From Acidimicrobiia bacterium (GTDB taxonomy: Bacteria; Actinomycetota; Acidimicrobiia; Spongiisociales; UBA5794), in assembly GCA_036396535.1 (NCBI GenBank), contig DASWKR010000035.1, positions 128,944-192,943 on the forward strand: a DNA stretch of 64,000 bases. The letters run 5' to 3'. The position numbers and the translations under genes were made by a program. The notes under the pieces were generated by a model. It saw only the letters and a program-made list of their open reading frames with translations. It searched no databases and had not been told where the DNA came from. The number at the start of each line of letters is the position of its first letter. Position 1 is the stretch's first letter. This document shows positions 3,538 to 18,814 of the stretch, in pieces.

Positions 3538-4755
3538 CTACAAGGCGCCGAGCGCCGCGACCACGCGATCGACCTCGCTCGGCGTGTTGTAGTGGGCGAG
3601 CCCGACCCGGACGAGACCCCCGCTGTCGAGAACGCCTAGGTGTCGCATCACCTCGAGGGCGTAGTAGTGGCCGTGCCACACGAAGATCCCCTGGCGGCCG
3701 AGGGCCCGCGCCACGTCTTGGGCGCTCCTCCCCTCGACCCCGATGGCGAACGTCGGTGCCCTCCCCTCCATCGTCGGTGCGCCGTACAGGCGAACGCGCC
3801 GCAATCCCGCCACCCCGTCGACGAACCGGTCACCGAGCGCCGTTTCGTGACCCCGTATGGCAGCCATCGCACCGACGAGGGCGGGTCGCCGCCGACCGGG
3901 CGGTCCGTGTGAGGCGAGGTAGTCGATCGCCGCGGTGACGCCGGCGAGGCTCTCGAAGCTCTGCGTTCCCGTCTCCCACTTGCCGGGCGGGTCGGAAGGG
4001 GCAGGCCGAATCCTGACGGCCGGCACGGAGGCGAGCAATGCCAGCTTCCCGTAGAGGATGCCCGTGTGGGGCCCGAAGAATTTGTACGCCGACGCCACCA
4101 AGAAGTCACAGTCGCTCGCCGCAACGTCGATCAGCCCATGCGGGGCGTGATGGACGGCATCCACGTACACGAGGGCACCAACCTCGTGGGCACGCTCGAC
4201 GACTCCTGCGACATCGACGATCGTGCCGATCGCATTGGACGCATGGGTCACGGCGACGAGCCGGGTGCGGTCGTCGAGCACGCTGTCGAACATGGCCGGC
4301 GTCAGTGACCCGTCGGAGGCATCGAAGTCGACGAAGCGGACCGTGGCACCTGCGTGCTCCGCTGCGATCAGCCACGGCGACACGTTGGCGTCGTGGTCGA
4401 GCCTCGTCACGACGATCTCGTCTCCGGGCCGCCAAGTGGCGGCGAGCGCCCTGCTAACCGACAGCGTGATGCTCGTCATGTTCTGGCCGAAGGCGATCTC
4501 GCTCGAAGACGCCGCGCCGAACAGATCGGCCGCAGCGGTTCGGGCCTCTTCGACCGCCGCCTCCGTCTCGGTGCTCGTCACGAACGGGCCTCCGAGGTTC
4601 GACCCCCCGCGCCGCATGAAGGCACTCATCGCCTCGATCACGGTCTCGACGACCTGGGTGCCTCCCGGGCCGTCGACGTAGACGGCTGGGACACCGTCCA
4701 CGAGACGCGCCAGAGCCGGGAATCGTGACCGAACCGCGGCGACGTCGAAGCCCAT
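3538..4755 (-). CDS. aminotransferase class V-fold PLP enzyme, cysteine desulfurase-like family
   Basis: 405 aa. SAYKFFGPHTGILYGK matches the PLP-lysine region of the cysteine desulfurase-like (NifS/CsdA-related) family, and the overall fold-type I pattern fits. Confidence 0.65.
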   Translation of the reverse strand: MGFDVAAVRSRFPALARLVDGVPAVYVDGPGGTQVVETVIEAMSAFMRRGGSNLGGPFVTSTETEAAVEEARTAAADLFGAASSSEIAFGQNMTSITLSVSRALAATWRPGDEIVVTRLDHDANVSPWLIAAEHAGATVRFVDFDASDGSLTPAMFDSVLDDRTRLVAVTHASNAIGTIVDVAGVVERAHEVGALVYVDAVHHAPHGLIDVAASDCDFLVASAYKFFGPHTGILYGKLALLASVPAVRIRPAPSDPPGKWETGTQSFESLAGVTAAIDYLASHGPPGRRRPALVGAMAAIRGHETALGDRFVDGVAGLRRVRLYGAPTMEGRAPTFAIGVEGRSAQDVARALGRQGIFVWHGHYYALEVMRHLGVLDSGGLVRVGLAHYNTPSEVDRVVAALGAL

Positions 4756-4855: not shown

Positions 4856-6256
4856 ATGATCGTCCCGGTGATTCTCTCCGGAGGCAGCGGCACGCGCCTG
4901 TGGCCGCTCTCGCGGCCGGCGCACCCGAAGCAGCTGTTGGCGATGGTCGACGACCGGACGATGCTGCGAGCCACCATCGACCGACTCGTCGGGGTTGCCG
5001 AGGCCGCTCCACCCATCGTCGTCTGCAACGCCGACCACCATCACCTCGTCGCCACCGAGCTCGCCGCGGCGGGACACGACCCCGACCGGGTGGTGCTGGA
5101 GCCGATCGGCAGGAACACAGCACCCGCGCTGGCAGCCGCGGCTCTGCTCGTCGATGACCAGGCGTCGCTGCTGCTGGTGCTCCCGGCCGACCATGTCGTC
5201 GAGAACGAGCCCGCCTTCAGGGAAGCAGTTGCAGCCGGCGTGCCATTCGCCGAGGAGGGTCGCCTCGTCACGTTCGGGATCGTGCCTCGCAGCGCCGAGA
5301 CCGGCTACGGCTACATCGAGATGGGCGAGCCGCTCTCGGGATCCATCAGGGAAGTGGCCGCCTTCGTCGAGAAGCCGGATCTCGCCACCGCCGAGCGGTA
5401 CGTCGCCGGGGGCGATCACCTTTGGAACAGCGGGATGTTCCTCTTCAGAGCCGACCGATTCCTCGAAGAGCTCGAGAGGCGGCGCCCGGACATCGTCGCC
5501 GCAGTGCGCCATGCGGTGGCGGGCGCCGTGAGGGACAACGGCATCCACCTCGACGCCACCGCCTTCGGCTCCTCGCCGAGCGATTCGATCGACTACGCCG
5601 TCATGGAGCACACCGACGCCGCGGTGGTCGTTCCCCTCGATGCCGGGTGGAGCGACGTCGGGTCGTGGTTGGCTCTGTGGGAGCTGTCGAGCCCCGACTC
5701 CTCGGGAAACGTGACGATCGGCGACGTCATCGCGATCGACATGACCGGCTCGTACGTCAGGGCGGGAGGCCGGCTGGTCGCTGCCATCGGCTTGGACGAC
5801 GTGGTCGTGGTCGACACGCCGGATGCGCTGCTCGTGGCGGCCAAGGAACGCTCCCAGGACGTGAAGGGCGTCGTCGACCGTCTCCGAGCCGGCGACCGCC
5901 CCGAGGCGGAGCGCAACCGGCGAGAGCGACGCCCGTGGGGATCCTTCGAGGTTCTCGAGACGGGTTCGGGGTACCAGGTGAAGCGTCTCACCGTCTCGGC
6001 TGGTCGCAGGTTGTCTCTCCAGCGGCACCGCAATCGCGCCGAGAAATGGACTGTGGTCGCAGGAACTGGTGTCGTCACGGTCGACGAAGAGCGCACCGCC
6101 GTCTCGCGCGGTGACACGGTCTCGATCGACGTCGGCTCGGTCCACCGGGTGATGAACGATGGTGAGACGGACCTGGAGATCATCGAGGTGCAGGTAGGAA
6201 GCTATCTCGGCGAGGACGACATCGAGCGGCTCGAGGACGATTACGGAAGGAGCTGA
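4856..6256 (+). CDS. manC: mannose-1-phosphate guanylyltransferase / mannose-6-phosphate isomerase (type II PMI-GMP)
   Basis: N-terminus MIVPVILSGGSGTRLWPLSR is the nucleotidyl transferase motif; the C-terminal cupin segment GSYLGEDDIERLED is typical of ManC/CpsB/XanB. Confidence 0.85.
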   Translation: MIVPVILSGGSGTRLWPLSRPAHPKQLLAMVDDRTMLRATIDRLVGVAEAAPPIVVCNADHHHLVATELAAAGHDPDRVVLEPIGRNTAPALAAAALLVDDQASLLLVLPADHVVENEPAFREAVAAGVPFAEEGRLVTFGIVPRSAETGYGYIEMGEPLSGSIREVAAFVEKPDLATAERYVAGGDHLWNSGMFLFRADRFLEELERRRPDIVAAVRHAVAGAVRDNGIHLDATAFGSSPSDSIDYAVMEHTDAAVVVPLDAGWSDVGSWLALWELSSPDSSGNVTIGDVIAIDMTGSYVRAGGRLVAAIGLDDVVVVDTPDALLVAAKERSQDVKGVVDRLRAGDRPEAERNRRERRPWGSFEVLETGSGYQVKRLTVSAGRRLSLQRHRNRAEKWTVVAGTGVVTVDEERTAVSRGDTVSIDVGSVHRVMNDGETDLEIIEVQVGSYLGEDDIERLEDDYGRS

Positions 6257-6868: not shown

Positions 6869-7072
6869 GTCACGGCCCTGGAACCTGGTTGGTCCCTGGG
6901 AAAAACAGGAAGGCCCCGATGAGGGCGGCACCGATCCCTACGACGGCGACCACCACGAAAACGACCGAGATGAACGTCGCCAGCCGATCGTGACGGGGTG
7001 TCGCATCGCTCACGACCGGCAGGGTACCGGCCCCACCCGGCGGCACCGGCACCGGGTATCGTCGCGGCTCTG

Positions 7073-8542
7073 ATGGAGGATCTCATGCAGTTCTGCGCGC
7101 ACTGTGGGACGGCACGAGCCGACGACGCGAGGTTCTGCGAAGCCTGCGGGAGCACGCTGGCGTTCGACGGCACGGCCGCCAACGAAGGCGAATGCGGCCG
7201 CTGCGCCTCGGGCCTCGCTCCTTGGTGGCGGTATTGCGCGAGGTGCGGCAACGAGACGCCCGTCGCCAATCTCTCTCGATCGAAACGCGTGGTCATCGAT
7301 GACCCGACGACTGCGCCGACGGAGGTCGAGGCGCCCCGCCGACAGGCGGAGCGCTTCGAACCGGTCGAGGCGCCGCGGCCTTCGGAGCACCTGCTTCCCG
7401 GCACGTTCGCCGACGTCGCCGACCGGCACGGAAGCCATCGGCGTCACCAGAGCGAGGTCGTCCGCGGCGAGATCGTCGACGAGCCGGGGGACCCCGAGTT
7501 GATCAGTCGCCAGCGAGATCCTCGCCCAGCTGCCGTGATCGATGACGAGGTCATCGAGTTGGAGAGGCTCGTCGAGGAGCATGATTGGAGCCCCCCGCTC
7601 GCGTCATCTCCCGGCGCGACTCCACCGGCCGAGCCGATTCAGGGTGGGATGCCGGCGGCCGAGGTGCCTCCCGGCGAAGCAGCCGACGCGGCGGCCGCCG
7701 TGATCCCGGAAGAGCCGCCCGCCCGGGGCGCACCCCGGCCGGAGGCTGCGGATCCCCGCACCATTGGCGCCCCCGAGCCGCAGCATGCCGTCGAGAACCA
7801 CGTCGGGGGGCCCGAGACGGAGGGACAGGGGTTGATCCCCCGACCCACCGGTCGGACGATCCCGGTGCAGCGGCCCGGCGTCGATCTGGCCCGCTACCGG
7901 GATCCATACGTGACCAGCAGGTTGGCCCAACTCGTTCTCCTCGCCGTCGCCACCCTGGCGACGACCGCGACGATCGGCCTCGTCGCCCTGAACAACCGAA
8001 TCGAGGATGTCGCCCGCCAGGTCCCCGAGGCTCTCGACGGAGCCGGCGACATCGCCGATCTGCTTGGTGTCTGGGTCATCCGCCCTCTGGCGGCTACGTC
8101 GGTCGTCGGACTCGTCGCCGTCATCGCGTGGACGTTCGTCGTCTACTCCAATCTCGTCGCCCTCGGCGTGAAGGACCTCAGGATCCCGAGAGGGGGCGCC
8201 GTCTGGGCTTGGGCCGTGCCCGGCTACAACCTGGCGATGCCGAAGCGCCTCATCGACGATGCATGGCGCGGCGCCGACCCGGAAGCGTGGCGAGATCGTG
8301 ACTGGCGGCTGCGGCAAGGGCTGATGTGGACCAACACATTCTGGTGGTCGCTGATGGCGGCGCTCGCCCTCTCCTTCGTGGGGTGGCGGCTCACGGGGTC
8401 GACGCCGGAGACGGCCCTCGACGCCAACGGGTGGGCCATCCTCAGCTACGGGTCGCTGATCGTGTCCTGCCTCGCCGGAGTGAGGATGATCTCGGCGACA
8501 TCGGCTCGCCAGAACGCGGCTGCCGAGGAAGCCCTGCGATGA
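7073..8542 (+). CDS. zinc-ribbon protein with C-terminal DUF4328 membrane domain
   Basis: N-terminal CxxC-x13-CxxC repeated twice (FCAHCG...CEACG; CGRC...CARCG). A proline/acidic linker follows, then a C-terminal domain with the DUF4328-like pattern VYSNLVALGVKDLRIPRGGAVWAWAVPGYNLAMPKRLIDDAW. Start could be ATG 7073 or ATG 7085, which is preceded by GGAGGA; the track's 6998 GTG is probably too far upstream. Confidence 0.6.
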   Translation: MEDLMQFCAHCGTARADDARFCEACGSTLAFDGTAANEGECGRCASGLAPWWRYCARCGNETPVANLSRSKRVVIDDPTTAPTEVEAPRRQAERFEPVEAPRPSEHLLPGTFADVADRHGSHRRHQSEVVRGEIVDEPGDPELISRQRDPRPAAVIDDEVIELERLVEEHDWSPPLASSPGATPPAEPIQGGMPAAEVPPGEAADAAAAVIPEEPPARGAPRPEAADPRTIGAPEPQHAVENHVGGPETEGQGLIPRPTGRTIPVQRPGVDLARYRDPYVTSRLAQLVLLAVATLATTATIGLVALNNRIEDVARQVPEALDGAGDIADLLGVWVIRPLAATSVVGLVAVIAWTFVVYSNLVALGVKDLRIPRGGAVWAWAVPGYNLAMPKRLIDDAWRGADPEAWRDRDWRLRQGLMWTNTFWWSLMAALALSFVGWRLTGSTPETALDANGWAILSYGSLIVSCLAGVRMISATSARQNAAAEEALR

Positions 8543-9084
8543 CGGGGCGGATCGTTGCAGTCTTCGGCGCCTCCGCCACCCATCCCCACCACGAGGACTG
8601 GGAGGCCGCGCATCGTTGCGGTGCTCTGCTCGCCGCCCGGGGCTTCACCGTTGCGACCGGAGGCTATGGAGGCATCATGGAGGCGGTTTCCTCGGGTGCG
8701 GCAGCTTCGGGAGGGCACGTCATCGGTGTCACGGCGCCCCTGGTCTTCCCCGATCGGCCGGGCGCCAACGCTCACGTCCTCGAGGAGCGGATGGCGGACA
8801 CCCTCCCTCAGCGTGTCGCCAGGCTGATCGAGGACAGCGACGCGGTCATCGCCCTCCCCGGCAGCATCGGCACGCTCACCGAGCTCGTGATGGCCTGGAA
8901 CACTGCATTCGTCACCCGTTTCTCAGGCTCGATGCCTCGACCCGTCGTCACCGTGGGCGACACGTGGACCCGCCTGGTCGCCCACATCGCCACCGAGCTC
9001 GCAACGGACAACGCCATCGTCCATTGTGTTGGCGACGTCGACGCAGCCGTCGCCTACGTCGTCGCCGCCACGGAGTCGGCTTGA
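8539..9084 (+). CDS. LOG-family protein (TIGR00730; cytokinin riboside 5'-monophosphate phosphoribohydrolase-like)
   Basis: ATG overlaps the upstream stop (ATGA). Motifs GGYGGIMEAV and PGSIGTLTEL match the LOG/SLOG signatures GGGxGxMG and PGGxGTxEE. Confidence 0.75.
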   Translation: MTGRIVAVFGASATHPHHEDWEAAHRCGALLAARGFTVATGGYGGIMEAVSSGAAASGGHVIGVTAPLVFPDRPGANAHVLEERMADTLPQRVARLIEDSDAVIALPGSIGTLTELVMAWNTAFVTRFSGSMPRPVVTVGDTWTRLVAHIATELATDNAIVHCVGDVDAAVAYVVAATESA

Positions 9085-9143
9085 AGGAGGCAGGGGGGCG
9101 CCTCCTACACTCGCCCGTCGCACAGCGAAGGGGAGACGCGACG

Positions 9144-9296
9144 ATGACGAGCGGCGGGTTCTACCTCGGAGCCGAGCCGGCAGACCTCAACGACAAGTGG
9201 GAGATGCGGGCGCTGGAAGCCGAGGACGTCGAGGTCGGGCTCGAGAAGGCCGACATCACGGTGGCCGAGGTGTCGATCGCCTGGATACCACGCTGA
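9144..9296 (+). CDS. small hypothetical protein (50 aa)
   Basis: ORF MTSGGFYLGAEPADLNDKWEMRALEAEDVEVGLEKADITVAEVSIAWIPR, preceded by GAAGGGGAG (SD-like) 7 nt upstream. Sits just 5' of the next gene. Confidence 0.3.
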   Translation: MTSGGFYLGAEPADLNDKWEMRALEAEDVEVGLEKADITVAEVSIAWIPR

Positions 9297-9327
9297 GCCC
9301 GATCGGCGCCGGTTAACCTCCCGGCAC

Positions 9328-9711
9328 ATGCGTGAGCGCCCCGCCATCGTTCGCATCCTCGAGACCCCCGGCGCCGATGCGACGCGGATCGCCGTGACGC
9401 TCGCCTGGCAGGACGAGGAGTTCACCGGCGAGGCCGCCGGCCTGTCCGACGCGGCGCACCGGCCTCGCATCATCGGCGAGGCGACTCTGCGCGCCGTCGA
9501 GGCGGTCACCAACAACAGCATCACTTTGAGCCTCGACGCCATCGCGACAACCGACCTCGGCGAGGGCCAGATCGCCATGGCACAGGTGACGCTCGACGGC
9601 ACCGACGAGCGGCTCGTCGGCAGCGCCATGGTCGGTGAGAACGACGAGGTGGCGGCGACGGTGAAGGCAGTTCTCGACGCGATCAACCGCCGGCTCGAGC
9701 GGGAGCTCTAG
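9328..9711 (+). CDS. hypothetical protein, DUF1876-like (Rv1738/Rv2632c-type fold)
   Basis: 127 aa. The segment ATRIAVTLAWQDEEFTGEAAGLSDAAHRPRIIGEATLRAVEAV resembles the DUF1876 consensus (A.A.L.W...G.G.A...P...IGDELA.ARAL), and a second similar half follows. Confidence 0.4.
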   Translation: MRERPAIVRILETPGADATRIAVTLAWQDEEFTGEAAGLSDAAHRPRIIGEATLRAVEAVTNNSITLSLDAIATTDLGEGQIAMAQVTLDGTDERLVGSAMVGENDEVAATVKAVLDAINRRLEREL

Positions 9712-11247: not shown

Positions 11248-11336
11248 CTAAAGATCCTCCAAGATTTCTTCGACGCCTCTGCATGACGACCAGCCCATGG
11301 TCCGATGCGGCCACCACTCCCGCTTCATGCAACATT

Positions 11337-11352
11337 GTGAAAGGCGTCACAA
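11337..11352. promoter_or_regulatory. Crp/Fnr-type palindrome TGTGA-aaggcg-TCACA
   Basis: Exact match to the TGTGA-N6-TCACA consensus, in the divergent intergenic region between the sigma-factor gene (minus) and yyaL (plus). Overlaps one arm of a 12-bp inverted repeat CACAAAGCCCGG (11349-11360) / CCGGGCTTTGTG (11385-11396). Confidence 0.4.
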
Positions 11353-11465
11353 AGCCCGGTTCGGTCCCAATATCACACATTCCCCGGGCTTTGTGAACCC
11401 CTCATCTGCCGAAAACCCGACGAGAAAAGGGCCTGAGGTCGAACGATTGGCCCTTCGATCGACCT

Positions 11466-11478
11466 GGGTTGTCCACAG
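11466..11478. repeat. direct repeat GGGTTGTCCACAG, copy 1 (copy 2 at 11560-11572)
   Basis: Two identical 13-nt copies 94 nt apart, in the 5' region of yyaL. Confidence 0.35.
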
Positions 11479-11608
11479 GCTCGTCAACACAACGCCGCAG
11501 ACTGGGGATCTCTTCCGCCCCAGGCGTCCTGCTGCCCGCCGACCTGGGGGAACCATGGCGGGTTGTCCACAGTCCGTCGGCGAGGACGCCCATGGCTACG
11601 GTGGACAC

Positions 11609-13630
<2,022 letters not shown>

Positions 13631-13636
13631 TCGGTC

Positions 13637-14602
13637 GTGATCGACATCTCCACCGGCCAGTGCATCTATTGCGGCGCCGAGAGGCGCCGCGACGCCATGC
13701 GCTGCCCACACTGCGAACGAATGTGGCCTGACAGGACGGTCACGGCCATCCGGATCGACCTCGACGACGTCTCGGAGGCCGAACAGGTGCGCGCCGGGGC
13801 CGGGCCCGTGCCGCAGCAGCCGGCGCCGAAGCGGGCGGCCCGGATCTGGGTGCCCGTCGGAGTCGCGGTGGCGGCCCTCGGTGCGTATCTCGTCTTGTTC
13901 GGGCTGATCCTCGACGGCGGCCCTCCCGACGAGGACGCCGCACCGCAAACGACGCTGCCCTCCCAAGAGACCTCGCCGGCGACGGCGAGCCCGTCCGAGC
14001 CGTCGACGACGGCCGCGCCGACGACGGCGGCGCCGACGACGACCGTGCCTCCGACCACGACGGCGACCACGTTGGCACCCATCGAAGCCGTGGGCGACGC
14101 CATCCCTATCGATGAGCTCTCGCTGGGGGCATTCGCGCTCGGGCCCCTCGACATAGGCTCGCCGGCCCACGACGCCGTCGGAAGGCTCGTCGCGACGTTC
14201 GGTCAACCCGACGCCGTGATAGAGACTCTCGACGCCTCGGTCGGGCTCTGTGACGGTGTCGCGGGTCGGCTGGTCTCGTGGGGTGGACTCGGACTCGTGC
14301 TCGCCGGCGATGGCGAGGCGGAGGCATTCGCCGGCTATCGCTTGGAGCTCGACGCGGACGACGGGCCGACCAACGGGTTGCGAACCCTTTCCGGGCTGGG
14401 CCTCGGCGACACGTGGGAGCAGGTCGAGGCGATCTACCCGACCGCCACCGGGGTCGACATCGGCGGTGCGCCCGGTTTCATCGTGTCCCGCTCGAGCGAC
14501 GGCATCACCCTCATCTGGGGGAGCCTGGCTGAGTCCGGTTCGACCGCACTCGTGACGGGTATCCACTCACCGAGGCCGTGTGACGGCGGCCCGACGCCGT
14601 GA
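13637..14602 (+). CDS. membrane-anchored protein: N-terminal zinc ribbon, 1 TM, Thr/Pro-rich linker, conserved C-terminal extracytoplasmic domain (paralog A)
   Basis: C4 zinc ribbon (CIYCG...CPHCE), TM segment IWVPVGVAVAALGAYLVLFGLIL and a linker TTAAPTTAAPTTTVPPTTTATT. The C-terminal domain shares blocks with 16708..17589 (AVGRLVAtFGqPD; FAGYRleLdaddG; LsGLglGdtweqvEaiYp; LiWGslaesGstalVtGIhSPrpCD). Confidence 0.5.
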   Translation: MIDISTGQCIYCGAERRRDAMRCPHCERMWPDRTVTAIRIDLDDVSEAEQVRAGAGPVPQQPAPKRAARIWVPVGVAVAALGAYLVLFGLILDGGPPDEDAAPQTTLPSQETSPATASPSEPSTTAAPTTAAPTTTVPPTTTATTLAPIEAVGDAIPIDELSLGAFALGPLDIGSPAHDAVGRLVATFGQPDAVIETLDASVGLCDGVAGRLVSWGGLGLVLAGDGEAEAFAGYRLELDADDGPTNGLRTLSGLGLGDTWEQVEAIYPTATGVDIGGAPGFIVSRSSDGITLIWGSLAESGSTALVTGIHSPRPCDGGPTP

Positions 14603-14714
14603 CGGGGTGCTCCGGGCTCGGCGCGTACGACCCGACGGCGGATATGATGCCTCCCGGGCGTCCTCCGGCCAGGACGCTCCTCTTTCGTTGAGAAGTCGGA
14701 GATTGGCTGATCAC

Positions 14715-16610
14715 ATGCCGCGCTGGCACCGAATGTTTCGGCTCCCGAACGTTCTCTCCGTCGCGCTCGGCTTGCTCGTCGGCTTCCTGCTCGCGTCGTA
14801 CTGGGAATCGCATGTGGGCGCCGCGGCCGCCGCAGCCATCGGGGGGATCGTCACCGCTCTCTCATGGCTCGCCTGGTGGCGATACGCCTCCGGGGCGCGC
14901 ATCGCCGACGAGTTCGAAACGCCGCCGCTCGGGATCATTCGCAGGTGGGACCACGGACCCGCGCCGACCCTCTCTGCCCAGGACTCGGACGTCGCCCAGG
15001 CATACCACGAGGCCGCAGAGCGCCTCGAGGCGATGACGCACGGCCAGGTCATCCTCGTCATGGCGGCGGCTCCGGGTCAGGGGGCGACCACGGTCGCGAT
15101 GAACCTCGCCATCGCCGCCACCCAGGGAGGGCGTCGTGTCGTGCTCATCGACGGCGATCCCTCCCGACGCGGGTTGTCCCGCTTCGGACACACGGGGGCC
15201 GCTCCCGGGCTCATCGACGTGGCGGCCGGGCGAGCGTCGCTCGTCGAGGCCTCTCGGATGTGGGACCTGGCCCCCGGCGTGCGGCTCCCGTTCATCCCGG
15301 CGGGGAGCCCGGTCGGGCTGACCCCGACGACGCTCGGCAGCAAGGAGATGGCGGAGGCCATCGACGTGCTCAGCGAAGGCTCGGACCTCGTGCTGATCGA
15401 CACTCCCCCCGTTTCGTGGGACGGCAACGTCGGACCGCTGGCGGCACACGCCGACGGGACGGTGCTCGTCGTGACCGAACGGACGGCTCCCTCGACCGTG
15501 AGCAGCACGGCGTCCCGGCTCGCCGAGGCGGGAGCCCCGGTCGCCGGGTTCTTGGTCAACAAGGCGGAGGAGACGGCCGAAGGCCTCGGCTGGCCGTGGC
15601 GCAGGGTCGCCAAGCGGGTGACGGCGACGTTCGCGGTCGCCCTTCTCGGGTTCATCTCCTACAACGCCTTCCAGATCTGGGACTCGTGGCGCTCGGTGGC
15701 GCGCGACCAGCTCGACGTCGCCGCGGCCGCCGCAGTCTTGCCGCTCCCCGGCGGGGGGGCAGTCCACGACGAGGTGGGCGGGGACATCGCTGCCATCGTG
15801 ACCGGGGAGCCGACCAGGCCAGAGGTCTTCCAGTCATTCCTCGTCGTCGGGAGCGACGCCGGCGGGGTCAGGGCCGATGTCATCACCCTGCTGCTCGTCC
15901 CTCCGGACGGCGACCCTGCCATCGTCTCGATCCCACGCGACCTCTACCTGCCGAACCGCTGCACACAGGGGTACGAGCGCATCAACGCCAGCCTGGCGGC
16001 GTGCGGTTCCATCAACGGCCCGACGATGCTGGCACTCGCAGTCGAGGACTACACCGGGATCGAGGTCGACCACTTCGCCCTCTTCGACTTCGACGGGTTC
16101 GAACGGATCATCGACGCCGTCGGCGGCGTCCAGATCTGTGTCGACCACCAGGTGCGGGACTCACGCTCGTTCCTCGACCTCCCCGCGGGGTGCACCACCG
16201 CCTCCGGCGCCCAAGCGCTGAGCTGGGTGCGGTCGAGGAGAACAGAAGAGCTGGTGGACGGCGCGTGGCGCAGGATGCAGGGAGTGAGCGACCTCACGCG
16301 CAACTTGCGGCAGCAGGACGTGATCCTGGCGATGTTCTCCAAGATGAAGACGTTCGGGTCGATCTCGGACCTCACGAGGACGGTGCGGAGCCTCACGAAC
16401 ACGTTCACGCTCGACACCCAGCTCGGAATCTCGGACGCCATCTCGCTCGCCTGGAGCCTGCGCGGCATCGATCCCCGGACGGTCACGCGAATCGAGATCC
16501 CGGTGCGAGACTTCACGACCTCGAGGGGAGCGAGCGTGCTCGTCCCGACGACGCCCTTCCGTGAGCTCCTGGCACCCGTCTTCCCCGACCTCGACCTCCA
16601 GGCCCTGTGA
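14715..16610 (+). CDS. fusion protein: N-terminal TM pair, BY-kinase/MinD-like P-loop domain with a degenerate Walker A, 1 TM, C-terminal LytR-CpsA-Psr (LCP) domain
   Basis: Start chosen at the ATG for MPRWHRMFRL (GGAG 14 nt upstream). ATPase domain: VMAAAPGQGATTVAMNLAIA (Walker A with K replaced by A), VVLIDGDPSRRG (A'), DLVLIDTPPV (Walker B), ADGTVLVV and AGFLVNKA. LCP domain: LVVGSDAGGVRADVITLLLV...AIVSIPRDLYLPN...ERINASLA...GIEVDHFALFDFDGFERIIDAVGGVQICVD. Confidence 0.7.
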   Translation: MPRWHRMFRLPNVLSVALGLLVGFLLASYWESHVGAAAAAAIGGIVTALSWLAWWRYASGARIADEFETPPLGIIRRWDHGPAPTLSAQDSDVAQAYHEAAERLEAMTHGQVILVMAAAPGQGATTVAMNLAIAATQGGRRVVLIDGDPSRRGLSRFGHTGAAPGLIDVAAGRASLVEASRMWDLAPGVRLPFIPAGSPVGLTPTTLGSKEMAEAIDVLSEGSDLVLIDTPPVSWDGNVGPLAAHADGTVLVVTERTAPSTVSSTASRLAEAGAPVAGFLVNKAEETAEGLGWPWRRVAKRVTATFAVALLGFISYNAFQIWDSWRSVARDQLDVAAAAAVLPLPGGGAVHDEVGGDIAAIVTGEPTRPEVFQSFLVVGSDAGGVRADVITLLLVPPDGDPAIVSIPRDLYLPNRCTQGYERINASLAACGSINGPTMLALAVEDYTGIEVDHFALFDFDGFERIIDAVGGVQICVDHQVRDSRSFLDLPAGCTTASGAQALSWVRSRRTEELVDGAWRRMQGVSDLTRNLRQQDVILAMFSKMKTFGSISDLTRTVRSLTNTFTLDTQLGISDAISLAWSLRGIDPRTVTRIEIPVRDFTTSRGASVLVPTTPFRELLAPVFPDLDLQAL

Positions 16611-16707
16611 CGGCGCCGTCGTGGCCGGAGGACCTGCCGAACCGGCCCACTCCGCCCCGATGTCATAAGATACGGGCCCCGAGTCGGACCCCGCGGAGCC
16701 GGAACAC

Positions 16708-17589
16708 ATGAGCGACAACGATTTCGAGGGTTTCGACCCGTACGAGGGCCTGACCGACCTGACGGGCGGCGAGCCCCTCCCGTCGCTCGAGCCTGGTCAC
16801 GTCCCCCCGGCTGCTCCACCGCGTTCGCCGCTCCTCACGGGGCTGATCGTCGCCCTGCTCCTCGTGGTCGTCACGGTCGCCCTCTTCCAGCTCCTCGGTG
16901 ACGACGGCGAGGGCGCCGCGGCAGGCTCCACCACTACGACGGGGTCCCCGGATACGTCGGGAAGCGGGGGCGAGACGACGACGACCGAGGCGACGTCGAC
17001 GACAGGCGGCGACACGACCACCACGACAGGCGCCCCAGGTGCGGTCACCCCGTACGAGCCGAGAGGTGAGCCGCTGACGCTCGACAACCTGACCCTGGCA
17101 GCCGACGCCATCGGGCCGATCGAGCTCGGTCAAGCAGCCGAGCGTGCCGTCGGGCGACTCGTCGCGTCGCTCGGCGATCCGGATGAGGACACTGGGCCGA
17201 TCGTCTCGACGGGCGCCTACGGGACGTGCGAGGGATCGATGGTGAGGATCGTGCGGTGGGGCGCCCTCGCAGCCGTCGTGGTCATCGATGACAACGGCGA
17301 CGAGATCTTCGCCGGGTATCGGGTCGACCTCGCCTACGAGGACGCATTCAGCTCCGAGACGGCCGATCTCGAGACGTTGTCCGGCCTCAGACCCGGCAAC
17401 TCCATCAGGAGGATCGAGGAGGTCTATTCCGAGTTCGACCGACGATTCGTCGTCGACCCGGAGGTGGGGGACGCCTTCGAGCTGTATGGCACATCCGGAA
17501 GCCTGCTCTTGTGGGGTCCCATCACCCAGCCGGACACGGGGGTCGTGAGGGGGATATTCTCGCCGGACGCCTGCGACAGGTTCCAGTAG
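16708..17589 (+). CDS. membrane-anchored protein: 1 TM, Thr/Gly-rich linker, conserved C-terminal extracytoplasmic domain (paralog B)
   Basis: TM segment LLTGLIVALLLVVVTVALFQLL, linker TTTTGSPDTSGSGGETTTTEATSTTGGDTTTTTG, and a C-terminal domain homologous to that of 13637..14602. Confidence 0.5.
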   Translation: MSDNDFEGFDPYEGLTDLTGGEPLPSLEPGHVPPAAPPRSPLLTGLIVALLLVVVTVALFQLLGDDGEGAAAGSTTTTGSPDTSGSGGETTTTEATSTTGGDTTTTTGAPGAVTPYEPRGEPLTLDNLTLAADAIGPIELGQAAERAVGRLVASLGDPDEDTGPIVSTGAYGTCEGSMVRIVRWGALAAVVVIDDNGDEIFAGYRVDLAYEDAFSSETADLETLSGLRPGNSIRRIEEVYSEFDRRFVVDPEVGDAFELYGTSGSLLLWGPITQPDTGVVRGIFSPDACDRFQ

Positions 17590-17682: not shown

Positions 17683-18420
17683 ATGTACGGCGCCCAACGC
17701 AGCCGCCTGCGTCCAACGGTCTACGGCGCGCTCGCAGGAGGTCTCCTCGGCCTCAGCCTCATGGTCCTGTTCACAGGCAAGTTCGCCATCGGCTCGATCG
17801 ATGCGGTGCTCCTCGATCGATCCGGGCCCAGAGCACGACCCGAGTTCGTCGTCAGCAGCGGGGGCCTCTACCTCCTCATCGTGGTGGCGGCGGTTGCAGG
17901 AGCGCTCGCGGTCGCCGGGATCATCTATGCGTTCGGGCGGGAGTCCGAGCCGATGGCAAGGCGATTCTCGCTGGCGTCGATGCTGCCGGTCGCGGCCGTC
18001 ACAGGCGCCGTGTTCGGCTACGGCACGATGCGAGCCGGCTTGGGGGCGGTTGCCGACATCGACCTCGGCATCGTGACCGTCTCCACCTACCGGATGGCTG
18101 TTGTCATCTCGATCGCCGGCGTGGTCACAGGCGGAGTGACCGCCAACGTCGTCGATGCACTCGCCAGGCCGGCGACGCTGGGCCTCGAAGGAGAGGCTCT
18201 GCCCCAGAGCCTCGGGGCGTTTCTCGGTGAGATGCAACGCGCCGTCGGAAGCCCGATGGTGTCCGTCGTCGTCCTCGCCGTGTTCGCCATCGGCCTCTCT
18301 CAGCTGCTGCTCGCCATCGAGGGGACCGCCGCCGTTGCCCTCTTCGCCGTGGTCGGAGCCGTCGTGCTCGCAGGGGCCACCCTCGCCGCCTATCGACCCT
18401 GGGATCGGCCGAGAGGCTGA
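17683..18420 (+). CDS. hypothetical integral membrane protein (about 6 TM)
   Basis: 245 aa, strongly hydrophobic throughout; no recognisable family. Confidence 0.4.
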   Translation: MYGAQRSRLRPTVYGALAGGLLGLSLMVLFTGKFAIGSIDAVLLDRSGPRARPEFVVSSGGLYLLIVVAAVAGALAVAGIIYAFGRESEPMARRFSLASMLPVAAVTGAVFGYGTMRAGLGAVADIDLGIVTVSTYRMAVVISIAGVVTGGVTANVVDALARPATLGLEGEALPQSLGAFLGEMQRAVGSPMVSVVVLAVFAIGLSQLLLAIEGTAAVALFAVVGAVVLAGATLAAYRPWDRPRG

Positions 18421-18442: not shown

Positions 18443-18814
18443 CTACGAGGCGTCATCGACCTCGACGGCTACGAGTGCTCCTCCACGCTCCGTGTACCTG
18501 ACCCGGACGGGCTCCCCGCTGGTGAGATGGGAGCGAAGGTGCCCGATCGAGCCGCCGTGGCCGAACAGAAGCCCGTCATCGGGAACGAACGAGCGGGACG
18601 TGCCGTCGGCGGACCGTACCGTGAAGGACTCGACGCTCGTGATGTCACCGACGACGTCGACCACTATCCCCTCGGCCGCTCCAGGCGAGGCGCCGCGGGC
18701 GGCGACGACGTCCGCCGCGTCGTCGACGCCCGCGGCGGCTACGACGAGCCACACGACGAGAGAGAGCGCCGCCACCGCAGCACCGACCAGGACGAACAGA
18801 CGTCGACGGCTCAC
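18443..18814 (-). CDS. hypothetical membrane-anchored protein
   Basis: 123 aa with an N-terminal TM (LFVLVGAAVAALSLVVWLVVAAA). Sits downstream of the cta operon. Confidence 0.4.
   Translation of the reverse strand: MSRRRLFVLVGAAVAALSLVVWLVVAAAGVDDAADVVAARGASPGAAEGIVVDVVGDITSVESFTVRSADGTSRSFVPDDGLLFGHGGSIGHLRSHLTSGEPVRVRYTERGGALVAVEVDDAS

Follow-up and report, generated by a model that had tools for sequence, protein, structure and literature searches.

Predicted single-pass paralogs sharing a putative new extracytoplasmic domain flank an LCP-fusion gene in Acidimicrobiia

Organization of the LCP locus

The window (the whole 64-kb stretch of Acidimicrobiia DNA that was analyzed) contains a run of genes transcribed in the same direction (+ strand): a gene coding for a DsbH/YyaL-like thioredoxin plus six-hairpin protein (11609..13630; Pfam Thioredox_DsbH, 3.7e-75), gene A (13637..14602; 321 aa, HEX9854973.1), gene M (14715..16610, with its ATG at 14715; 631 aa, HEX9854974.1), gene C (16708..17589; 293 aa, HEX9854975.1), and gene D (17683..18420), which was recognized by synteny and codes for a six-helix membrane protein of 245 aa. 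At NCBI, M is annotated as "LCP family protein" (Pfam LytR_cpsA_psr, 3.6e-29), and both A and C as "hypothetical". For D, no match was found in Pfam or NCBIfam, and its AF2 model (pLDDT 76) matched no PDB fold. The mechanical start of the DsbH/YyaL-like ORF lies at 11297, but its homologs begin at MPNRLA (11609); its stop lies 6 nt upstream of the A start. Both genes are adjacent in nearly all loci, with overlap or near-contact in three of them (L041, L045, and L038), and A is predicted to be often translationally coupled to this upstream gene.

A sequence-only reading of this region had assigned one layout to the products of both genes flanking M (a TM, a Thr-rich linker, and a globular domain), and the topology scan agreed with it. 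A is predicted to consist of a cytoplasmic C4 zinc ribbon (CIYCGAERRRDAMRCPHC, aa 9-26, CxxC-x10-CxxC; 13661..13714), a TM helix (aa 74-92; 13856..13912), a Thr/Pro/Ala-rich stalk of 52 aa (16 T, 11 P, and 9 A; 13919..14074), and an extracytoplasmic domain (aa 146-321, with the Cys pair C205/C315; 14072..14599) that was delimited by BLASTP against the C copy, an AF2 model, and a family profile match (1e-58). C would have a conserved acidic cytoplasmic peptide (DPYEGLTDLTGGEPLPSLEP; 16735..16794), a TM helix (aa 42-60; 16831..16887), a Thr/Gly stalk of 48 aa (17 T and 11 G), and a second copy of the domain (aa 113-293, with the Cys pair C174/C289; 17044..17586), located by BLASTP against the A copy and by the family profile. 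The hydropathy scan predicted one TM per protein; since basic residues precede it and acidic residues follow it in both cases, an N-in orientation is expected, and, along with the Thr-rich stalk and the conserved Cys pair, this charge pattern puts the domain on the outside of the cell. No sortase or sorting signal was found in either protein. The cytoplasmic ends differ: virtually all first-position orthologs, and no second-position ortholog, have the CxxC...CxxC ribbon, which bears out its earlier assignment to the 5' copy, though its score against Pfam Zn_Ribbon_1 (13.9 bits) is below the cut-off of 25. The N-terminal peptide of C is 60-73% identical among orthologs, above the identity of the shared domain, and most second-position copies carry a DPYxxLxDL motif.

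M is predicted to contain two TM segments, a cytoplasmic BY-kinase-like P-loop domain (15000..15614, from alignments to BceF, CapB, and Wzc), a further TM, and an extracytoplasmic LCP catalytic domain (15843..16607, from Pfam and PDB alignments). The description of M as an LCP fusion stood as regards the LCP domain, whose Arg/Asp motifs are kept (GSD..RADV, IPRD, WVRSR, and RNLRQQ); its fusion partner turned out to be a BY-kinase-like domain lacking the P-loop lysine. The Walker A (APGQGATT, 15069-15092), Walker A' (15138-15170), and Walker B (15387-15413) segments can be located, and in the PDB alignments M has Ala where BceF, CapB, and Wzc carry the GK lysine, which is missing in all 36 orthologs (36/36). 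The similarity of M to TIGR01007 (4.3e-18) is below the cut-off of that model, there is no Tyr cluster at the C-terminus of the kinase-like domain (0 Tyr in its tail), and, orthologs aside, this domain comes nearest to Wzz-fused actinobacterial BY-kinases (about 30% identity). For the LCP domain, LcpA of A. oris is the closest relative with a solved structure (5v8c, E=7.9e-18). M retains the Arg residues defined as essential in that enzyme (PMC6381275), and it would therefore be a working enzyme that other proteins could assist.

The domain shared by A and C

The C-terminal domains of A and C aligned by BLASTP with composition correction at 37% identity and 54% positives over 182 aa (E=1e-25), and their Smith-Waterman score was 256, against 35.5 +/- 6.0 for 500 shuffles (z=36.5). 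All four colinear motif blocks that had been noticed in both proteins are present in this alignment. The Thr-rich linkers lie outside it and contribute nothing to the identity, which disposes of the concern that the two domains align only through low-complexity residues. Judged from these comparisons, A and C are true paralogs. Two copies of the domain, and no more, are present in the window. The conservation claimed for the Cys pair extends to 131 family domains, with the first Cys kept in 100% and the second in 96%, the latter being lost or moved in one C-type sub-clade.

The domain comprises about 175 aa, and the AF2 model of the A copy (pLDDT 91, pTM 0.87) consists of two alpha+beta halves, each with one helix on a four-stranded sheet. 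Each half opens with an h-G-h-x-h-G-(D/S)-(T/P)-x-x-x-V loop-helix motif, and a WG turn occupies equivalent positions in both; a profile-profile comparison of the two halves was not significant (probability 3%). The earlier impression that the domain belongs to no recognized family was confirmed: no match was found in Pfam or NCBIfam, or in the PDB either by sequence or, despite the confident model, by fold (Foldseek). As far as these searches and the model tell, it is a previously undescribed domain. Repeats of the BLIP/BamE kind, with a helix and a beta-sheet, have a layout like that of the halves; no BLIP/BamE protein was among the Foldseek top hits and no Pfam clan member was matched, so this relationship is unsupported. 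LytR_C (PF13399) is an extracytoplasmic accessory C-terminal domain with an undefined role, present in many actinobacterial LCP proteins. The shared domain is likewise extracytoplasmic and LCP-associated in Actinobacteria, but it resides on separate proteins, is about twice as large, and has a Cys pair. LytR_C had been named as an identity that would undo the assignment, and it was dropped after none of 30 diverse family members (A, C, and 28 others) matched it even at E<=10.

Conserved positions of the family are mostly Gly, Leu, Pro, Trp, and Tyr plus the Cys pair, and no conserved His/Asp/Glu set or nucleophile constellation was found in the family alignment, a pattern suggesting that the domain binds or serves as a scaffold instead of catalyzing a reaction. 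A fold with no known match leaves room for an activity, and some polar residues are conserved (Y89, R90, T105, S107, Y122, and S166 in domain numbering), as would suit an undescribed wall hydrolase or glycopolymer-modifying enzyme; given the residues that dominate the conservation, and that small domains with two repeated halves are typical of binding modules, we assign very little probability to this explanation.

Distribution and gene order of the family

The domain family comprises 437 representative clusters, and all 47 copies that could be located in genomes were in Acidimicrobiia MAGs (47/47). The order A, ATPase-LCP fusion, C was found in 28 of 46 distinct species-level loci, plus two damaged copies, so that the trio recurs in about 30 species-level genomes. 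Wherever the sequence downstream of an LCP gene was readable, the gene is followed by one for a C-type paralog (37/37 loci). The bracketing of the LCP gene by A and C is thus conserved and no accident. The A-type and C-type domains fall into two clades, both old, whose trees run in parallel; together with the paralogy of the domains, this indicates that both copies were kept together through speciation.

The dedicated three-component module that had been envisaged holds as far as this bracketing goes, but the unit is larger and less rigid than three genes: D follows C at every locus with downstream sequence long enough for its detection, the DsbH-like gene precedes A, and A is separable. LCP-C-D occurs without A in four loci, and A-ATPase-C-D without an LCP domain in two (L001 and L009). 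As A and the N-terminal motif of C are also kept in loci lacking the ATPase domain (L038 and L045), neither proposed partner is obligatory.

In three loci A lies beside other wall-glycan genes instead of LCP (3/3 displaced cases). There it heads clusters that include genes for Ugd, an NTP-transferase, a Bac_transf priming transferase, GT1, and an ABC-2 exporter permease, with peptidoglycan genes for SpoIID- or M15-type enzymes. Moreover, two independent assemblies (L050/P0049 and L037) contain a third subfamily that is fused in the order response regulator-GGDEF-GT2 synthase-zinc ribbon-TM-Thr linker-domain. By its predicted domain order, this fusion is a Rosetta-stone link of the domain module to polysaccharide synthesis that is independent of the LCP locus.

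Part of this conservation may be inertia, since the region is core-genome synteny: a primary-type sigma factor, the DsbH-like gene, and a cytochrome oxidase operon, functionally unrelated, are equally syntenic. A and C could accordingly be generic fast-evolving surface proteins that stay near LCP through preserved gene order, in keeping with intergenic gaps of about 100 nt and with distant family members in unrelated contexts. We consider this quite improbable: LCP-C-D remains unbroken where A or the ATPase domain has been lost or sat/cysC inserted, displaced A adjoins wall-glycan genes in every case, and the GT2 fusion ties the module to polysaccharide synthesis independently.

Proposed role of A and C

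We tentatively propose, with somewhat less than even confidence, that A and C serve the machinery for wall-polysaccharide assembly and wall attachment in Acidimicrobiia as accessory proteins that span the membrane once (N-in) and have no enzymatic activity. Each would hold a disulfide-braced alpha/beta domain outside the membrane on a flexible stalk of about 50 aa. By binding the LCP catalytic domain, the glycopolymer, or the acceptor peptidoglycan, this domain would position or feed the ligation step that M runs through its LCP domain. The cytoplasmic heads, which differ between A (C4 zinc ribbon) and C (acidic DPYxxLxDL peptide), would dock cytoplasmic partners, the catalytically degenerate BY-kinase-like domain of M being an obvious candidate, and D would complete the complex. 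The substrate-presenting or anchoring role suggested by the sequence-only reading fits the gene-neighborhood and fusion evidence; binding, complex formation, and the other mechanistic steps are what we infer from that evidence. The intergenic gaps of 93-112 nt in the module leave room for separate promoters, which counts against an accessory complex. So do the loci that lack the LCP or the ATPase domain, the distant family members, which are stand-alone lipoproteins in unrelated neighborhoods, and the failure of the fold searches of the domain to recognize a carbohydrate-binding fold.

Among the closest known systems are the modules that control capsule and wall polysaccharide in Firmicutes, CpsA (LCP)/CpsC/CpsD of S. 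pneumoniae and CapA/CapB with LcpC of S. aureus, in which an LCP ligase, a BY-kinase-type P-loop protein, and membrane partners couple polysaccharide synthesis to peptidoglycan attachment (PMC6441080). The same pairing with membrane partners is found here, with both activities in one polypeptide. BY-kinases have an invariant Walker A GK and a Tyr cluster (PMC4007543), whereas the kinase-like domain of M has neither; in addition, a Wzz/PCP domain is absent here, and A and C are single-pass proteins carrying a new domain, in contrast to the two-TM activators CpsC and CapA. What would be new is the shared domain; LCP wall-glycan loci are already known.

A receptor-like arrangement, with a folded head in the cytoplasm and a domain beyond the membrane, would also suit transmembrane sensors or relays, in which the outer domain reports on the state of the wall or glycopolymer and the heads signal to the degenerate BY-kinase-like domain, switching LCP or upstream synthesis. 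The very variable length of the A-type cytoplasmic linkers (up to ~500 aa), the conservation of a kinase-like domain without its P-loop lysine, as expected for a regulatory pseudo-enzyme, and the response regulator controlling the GT2 synthase in the third subfamily speak for it. We nevertheless regard it as unlikely, since known signaling domains are absent from A and C, both are kept in loci without the ATPase domain, and similarity of the domain to PAS, Cache, and PDC sensor folds was not significant (3lif, E=0.018) or, by Foldseek, not found.

Stalks of the Thr/Pro type are, in Actinobacteria, more often O-mannosylated by Pmt, which counts against A and C being acceptor substrates of LCP with glycan placed on their stalks. 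Such a role would resemble that of GspA, the protein glycosylated by A. oris LcpA (PMC6381275), which, like M, is an actinobacterial LCP enzyme with the conserved catalytic Arg; the long Thr-rich stretches in both neighbors of M make them conceivable acceptors. The similarity of the LCP domain to LcpA, however, may reflect just common actinobacterial ancestry. GspA is described as cell wall-anchored, whereas A and C are anchored N-terminally in the membrane and lack a sorting signal; A is also found away from LCP, a GT2 synthase carries the same module as a fusion, and what is conserved is the globular domain, not the stalk. An acceptor role thus seems to us quite unlikely.

For accessory proteins of the kind we favor, architectural parallels exist in bitopic wall-linked adaptors such as pneumococcal MapZ (and RodZ). 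These combine a head in the cytoplasm with a single TM, and a flexible Ser/Thr-rich extracellular linker serves as the pedestal of a distal globular domain that marks or reads the wall (PMC4931243 and PMC7055233). A and C follow this general head-TM-linker-globular plan. The parallel is confined to architecture: neither in sequence nor in fold do A and C resemble MapZ, which is a cell-division protein, and they lie in a context of glycopolymer genes.

Two paralogous stalked proteins beside an LCP-fusion gene

Exact protein look-up traced the window, which has a GC content of 65-71%, to an Acidimicrobiia metagenome-assembled genome (MAG). Three consecutive genes transcribed in the forward direction are annotated there by NCBI: gene A (13637-14602) as a hypothetical protein (HEX9854973.1, 321 aa), the LCP-fusion gene M, starting at the ATG at 14715, as an "LCP family protein" (HEX9854974.1, 631 aa), and gene C (16708-17589) as a hypothetical protein (HEX9854975.1, 293 aa). 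The mechanically called ORF of M begins further upstream, at a GTG at 14580. A fourth gene, D (17683-18420), codes for a protein of 245 aa, and the intergenic gaps are 112 nt (A-M), 97 nt (M-C), and 93 nt (C-D). Upstream of A lies a DsbH/YyaL-like gene (thioredoxin plus six-hairpin domains), called mechanically at 11297-13630 and probably starting at 11609 rather than at 11297. Only 6 nt separate its stop from the start of A, and the two genes overlap in two homologous loci from other genomes (L041 and L045), which suggests that translation of A is often coupled to that of the DsbH-like gene. A scan of promoters and terminators gave counts not above the shuffled expectation. An antisense ORF of 1054 aa (11402-14566, reverse strand) spanning the DsbH-like gene and A failed selection by a third-position GC filter and was discarded as a high-GC artefact.

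The sequence-only reading had proposed that A and C share a paralogous C-terminal domain, and the alignment of both proteins bore this out, with 37% identity and 54% positives over 182 residues (composition-corrected E=1e-25) and a Smith-Waterman score of 256, compared with 35.5 +/- 6.0 for shuffled sequence (z=36.5). The four motif blocks pointed out by that reading were all present in the alignment. Since the Thr-rich linkers fall outside the aligned region, a low-complexity origin of the similarity was ruled out. Exactly two copies of the domain occur within the 64 kb. The common layout of one transmembrane helix followed by a Thr-rich linker was also recovered: each protein has a single, strongly hydrophobic helix flanked by basic residues on its N-terminal side and by acidic residues on its C-terminal side, and a linker of 48-52 aa, mostly Thr, plus Pro/Ala in A or Gly in C. 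The Cys pair of the domain was found to be conserved in 100% (first Cys) and 96% (second Cys) of 131 family domains. The second, C-terminal Cys is lost or relocated in one sub-clade of the copies that follow the LCP gene (L006, L010, L012, L019, L025, L026, L028, and L031, at about 8960-9520 in each locus) and lies at the very end in L018 and in protein P0011, so the disulfide is not universal. The shared domains of A and C face the outside of the cell on flexible stalks and are probably disulfide-bonded. In this architecture A and C resemble, without homology, bitopic wall-linked adaptors such as MapZ, which consists of a cytoplasmic domain, one transmembrane helix, a Ser-rich pedestal linker, and a distal domain (PMC4931243).

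The cytoplasmic heads of A and C are different, and both are conserved. The N-terminal C4 zinc ribbon ascribed to A was located at C9, C12, C23, and C26, as two CxxC knuckles about 10 residues apart; it is kept in orthologs and forms a predicted metal site, with a Pfam score of 13.9 that lies below the threshold of 25. Across loci it occurs in the copies that precede the LCP gene (A-type) and never in those that follow it (C-type). We also considered that A could be a ZAS-type anti-sigma factor, on account of a zinc site and a transmembrane helix near a sigma factor gene. This was rejected, as the motif is CxxC-x10-CxxC instead of HxxxCxxC, and the nearby sigma factor is of the primary type and not ECF, with regions 1.2, 2, 3, and 4 and about 90% conservation across the class; its gene is located past the DsbH-like gene and on the other strand. 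The head of C is a cytoplasmic peptide, DPYEGLTDLTGGEPLPSLEP (16735-16794; DPYxxLxDL...EPLP), better conserved than the shared domain (60-73% versus about 50%). It persists in L045, where the ATPase-like domain of the middle gene is missing, and a similar AYEQLDDL is found in L038, which also lacks that domain; it therefore probably binds to a different conserved partner in the cytoplasm.

An unnamed domain family

Searches with the shared domain agreed with the sequence-only reading that it matches no recognized family. Pfam searches with A, C, and 28 other diverse members at E<=10 gave only zinc ribbons and mucin-like linker noise, and NCBIfam gave no match. The domain is not LytR_C (PF13399), which matched neither A nor C at E<=1 nor any of 30 diverse members at E<=10. 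The PDB sequences, searched both with a single sequence and with a profile, gave a best E of about 0.1-0.3. The AlphaFold2 model, built from an 11-sequence alignment, was confident (pLDDT 91, pTM 0.87), yet found no counterpart: Foldseek returned nothing at E<=0.001 from the PDB (best E=0.02, TM<=0.40) and no significant match from BFVD (best E=0.08), where the second-ranked entry was a phage "zinc-ribbon domain protein" (TM 0.38, E=0.09, not significant). The two halves of the model are similar in secondary structure, each with one helix followed by four strands, and a WG turn occurs at the equivalent place in both. An internal duplication was nevertheless not supported, as HHalign of the two halves gave a probability of 3% and only a 13-column match around WG.

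Proteins with one transmembrane helix, an outside domain, and a conserved head could also be read as a sensor or relay. A PDC/Cache-like sensor fold was considered for the shared domain and discarded: the match of a half-domain profile to 3lif (E=0.018, with per-domain E values of 14 and 58) is not significant, and no fold of this type came up in Foldseek. We regard a sensor or relay function of A and C as unlikely. Gly, Leu, Pro, Trp, and Tyr, along with the two Cys, make up most of the conserved positions of the domain (Y89, R90, T105, S107, Y122, and W149 are among them), no catalytic-looking residue set is present, and it would be very surprising if this domain were an enzyme of an unknown kind.

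An exhaustive profile search of 1.84 billion representative proteins found 437 members at E<=0.001, of which 109 reached E<=1e-30, so that several hundred representative sequence clusters carry a domain named by no database; the family proteins are labeled "hypothetical" in their sources. Long members (600-776 aa) are of the A-type, with a long disordered cytoplasmic segment rich in Pro, Ala, and Glu between the ribbon and the transmembrane helix. Distant members are small lipoproteins; the only one with readable contigs (P0144) lies in an unrelated neighborhood (L053-L055), the contigs of L051 and L052 being too short to read. In a neighbor-joining tree of 84 domains, the zinc-ribbon (A) clade was separate from the second-position (C) clade, and a basal group contained single-copy loci and less diverged pairs. 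The internal topologies of the A and C clades are largely parallel, indicating that the duplication is old and that both copies have been inherited together. In a third subfamily, the module is fused in frame to the end of a response regulator-GGDEF-GT2 synthase, so that the synthase is followed by the zinc ribbon, a transmembrane helix, a Thr linker, and the domain. This fusion was found in a JGI contig (L050, 5380-8724, P0049) and in a GTDB MAG (L037, 3074-6435), the latter with a stop inside a poly-Thr stretch that is probably an assembly error. The fusion, present in two independent assemblies, ties the whole ribbon-TM-stalk-domain module to a polysaccharide synthase independently of LCP. 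No description of the shared domain, or of an ATPase-LCP fusion, was found in the literature.

The middle gene and protein D

LCP enzymes, which are candidate drug targets, join teichoic acids, capsules, and arabinogalactan to peptidoglycan. To our knowledge, they have been studied as stand-alone enzymes, and no dedicated partner proteins have been described for them. The C-terminal half of M is an LCP domain (PF03816, 3.6e-29, 102.3 bits against a cut-off of 24.6; TIGR00350, 82.6 against 62.3), preceded by a hydrophobic segment (aa 347-367) that places it outside the cytoplasm. Among solved structures it is closest to Actinomyces oris LcpA (5v8c, E=7.9e-18), in which R128, R149, and R266 are the pyrophosphate-binding Arg residues and R149 and R266 are essential (PMC6381275). 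In the alignment with 5v8c, residues R431 (RADV), R453 (PRD), and R574 (RNLRQQ) of M, in the numbering of the 676-aa ORF, fall at or within one residue of these three positions, with R577 three residues past R574. Judged by these residues, the LCP domain is apparently competent.

The N-terminal half of M contains two transmembrane helices and a P-loop domain closest to the BY-kinases BceF, CapB, and Wzc (E about 1e-14), with about 30% identity to Wzz-fused actinobacterial BY-kinases. The Walker A GK(S/T) is invariant in 796 BY-kinases (PMC4007543). In M this motif (15069-15092) reads PGQGATT, with Ala replacing Lys, and each of the 36 orthologs compared (L001-L047) has A, T, or S at this position. 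Walker A' is IDGDPSRR, which keeps both Asp of DxDxR and has the Arg one position off. Walker B, DxxP in BY-kinases, is IDTPP in the window, its Asp being replaced by Asn in about 14 of the 36 orthologs. There is no C-terminal Tyr cluster, no Tyr being found within 45 residues past the P-loop domain, and the TIGR01007 (eps_fam) score of 65.6 bits lies below the cut-off of 108.05. On the lysine, the Tyr cluster, and the TIGR01007 score, this half is best called, from its sequence, a conserved BY-kinase-like pseudo-enzyme domain, which shares one polypeptide with an LCP ligase.

Protein D matched no family in Pfam or NCBIfam. Its AlphaFold2 model (pLDDT 76) comprises six helices and two small outside hairpins, without a fold match in the PDB. 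Between D and ctaG many loci contain a small conserved gene (18443-18814, reverse strand), whose 122-aa product has an N-terminal transmembrane helix and a weak, sub-threshold match to SH3_Rv0428c.

Conservation of the locus and a possible function

A scan of one genome per GTDB species yielded 47 loci, all from MAGs and nearly all labeled as Acidimicrobiia or related actinobacteria, with a few unclassified and one labeled Gemmatimonadales. Synteny was analyzed by tblastn of the window proteins against all loci, 46 of which are distinct. The order domain gene, ATPase-LCP gene, domain gene was conserved in 28 of these 46, in addition to a copy with a frameshift and another truncated where its contig stops. 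In most loci, as in the window, it is flanked upstream by the primary-type sigma factor and DsbH-like genes and downstream by D and cytochrome oxidase genes. A C-type paralog follows the LCP domain in all 37 loci with downstream sequence, and D follows C wherever that sequence is long enough for its detection. Variants of this order were also found. L038 and L045 have A-LCP-C-D without the ATPase domain (with a sulfate-activation gene inserted after A in L045), and L035, L036, L039, and L049 have LCP-C-D without A and also without the ATPase domain. In L001 (8749-9735) and L009 (about 4013-4561) the middle gene ends after the ATPase-like domain, and A, C, and D are still in place. These variants break a rule by which A pairs with the ATPase domain and C with LCP: A occurs in L038 and L045 although the ATPase domain is missing there, and C occurs in L001 and L009 although the LCP domain is missing. 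In L040, L041, and L044 the A-type gene, still located after the DsbH-like gene, leads other genes: a SpoIID/FG-GAP protein and an ABC-2 exporter permease (L040); a UDP-glucose dehydrogenase, a sugar-nucleotidyl transferase, and a Bac_transf priming transferase (L041); and a nucleotidyl transferase, a Bac_transf, an M15 peptidase/FG-GAP protein, and a GT1 (L044). The dedicated three-component module of the sequence-only reading stands as regards its existence and conserved order, but it is larger than a trio and A is separable from LCP.

Our leading reading, to which we give a little under an even chance, is that A and C are non-enzymatic accessory subunits. The shared domain would bind a glycopolymer, peptidoglycan, or the LCP ectodomain and so position the ligation step, and the cytoplasmic heads would dock partners such as the kinase-like domain. 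Consistent with this are the distinct conserved heads, the tight linkage of C and D to LCP, which survives rearrangements, the recurrence of A-type genes beside genes for wall glycan and peptidoglycan, the GT2 fusion, and the apparently competent LCP domain. The accessory reading is weakened by several observations: the partners are not obligatory in L001, L009, L038, and L045, the intergenic gaps could be roomy enough for promoters, the region belongs to core-genome synteny, and no carbohydrate-binding fold was recognized by Foldseek in the PDB or BFVD. The core-genome synteny would also fit A and C lying beside LCP by mere synteny, which we consider improbable alongside the persistence of the C-D-LCP linkage. 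Their Thr-rich stalks could make A and C acceptor glycoproteins of LCP in the manner of GspA; this role too seems quite improbable.

A more specific form of the accessory reading, which we put forward as doubtful, is that the shared domain is a new stalked fold binding glycopolymer or peptidoglycan and supplying LCP ligases and GT2 synthases with lipid-linked wall polysaccharide or its acceptor. A, C, D, and the lysine-less BY-kinase-like domain would then form an Acidimicrobiia-specific transmembrane complex deciding the site and timing of polysaccharide attachment to the wall, and no dedicated accessory subunits of an LCP enzyme would have been described before A and C. The locus is of a known kind, built around an unnamed domain family. 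It has a functional likeness to the Firmicute systems CpsA/CpsC/CpsD and CapAB/LcpC, which couple polysaccharide synthesis to LCP-mediated attachment (PMC6441080), and differs from them in the fused lysine-less kinase-like domain, the lack of a Wzz domain, and the new single-pass partners. It offers a conserved set of candidate LCP partners, namely the paralogous stalked pair A and C and the six-helix membrane protein D, and a natural example of LCP fused to a degenerate tyrosine-kinase-like domain, and the same accessory module is also fused to a polysaccharide synthase. Should binding be demonstrated, the domain would count as a new module for wall-glycan recognition; failing that, it would still be a clean new domain, unknown in function but clear in its genomic context. 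The Acidimicrobiia are an abundant, almost uncultured class whose envelope is poorly known.

Two further genes lie 5-9 kb upstream of the module. One (6998-8542) encodes a second zinc-ribbon membrane protein, with a double zinc ribbon and DUF4328. The other (4856-6256) is a GDP-mannose pathway gene (ManC-type nucleotidyl transferase/isomerase) that could be a source of mannose for O-mannosylation or for a wall glycan.
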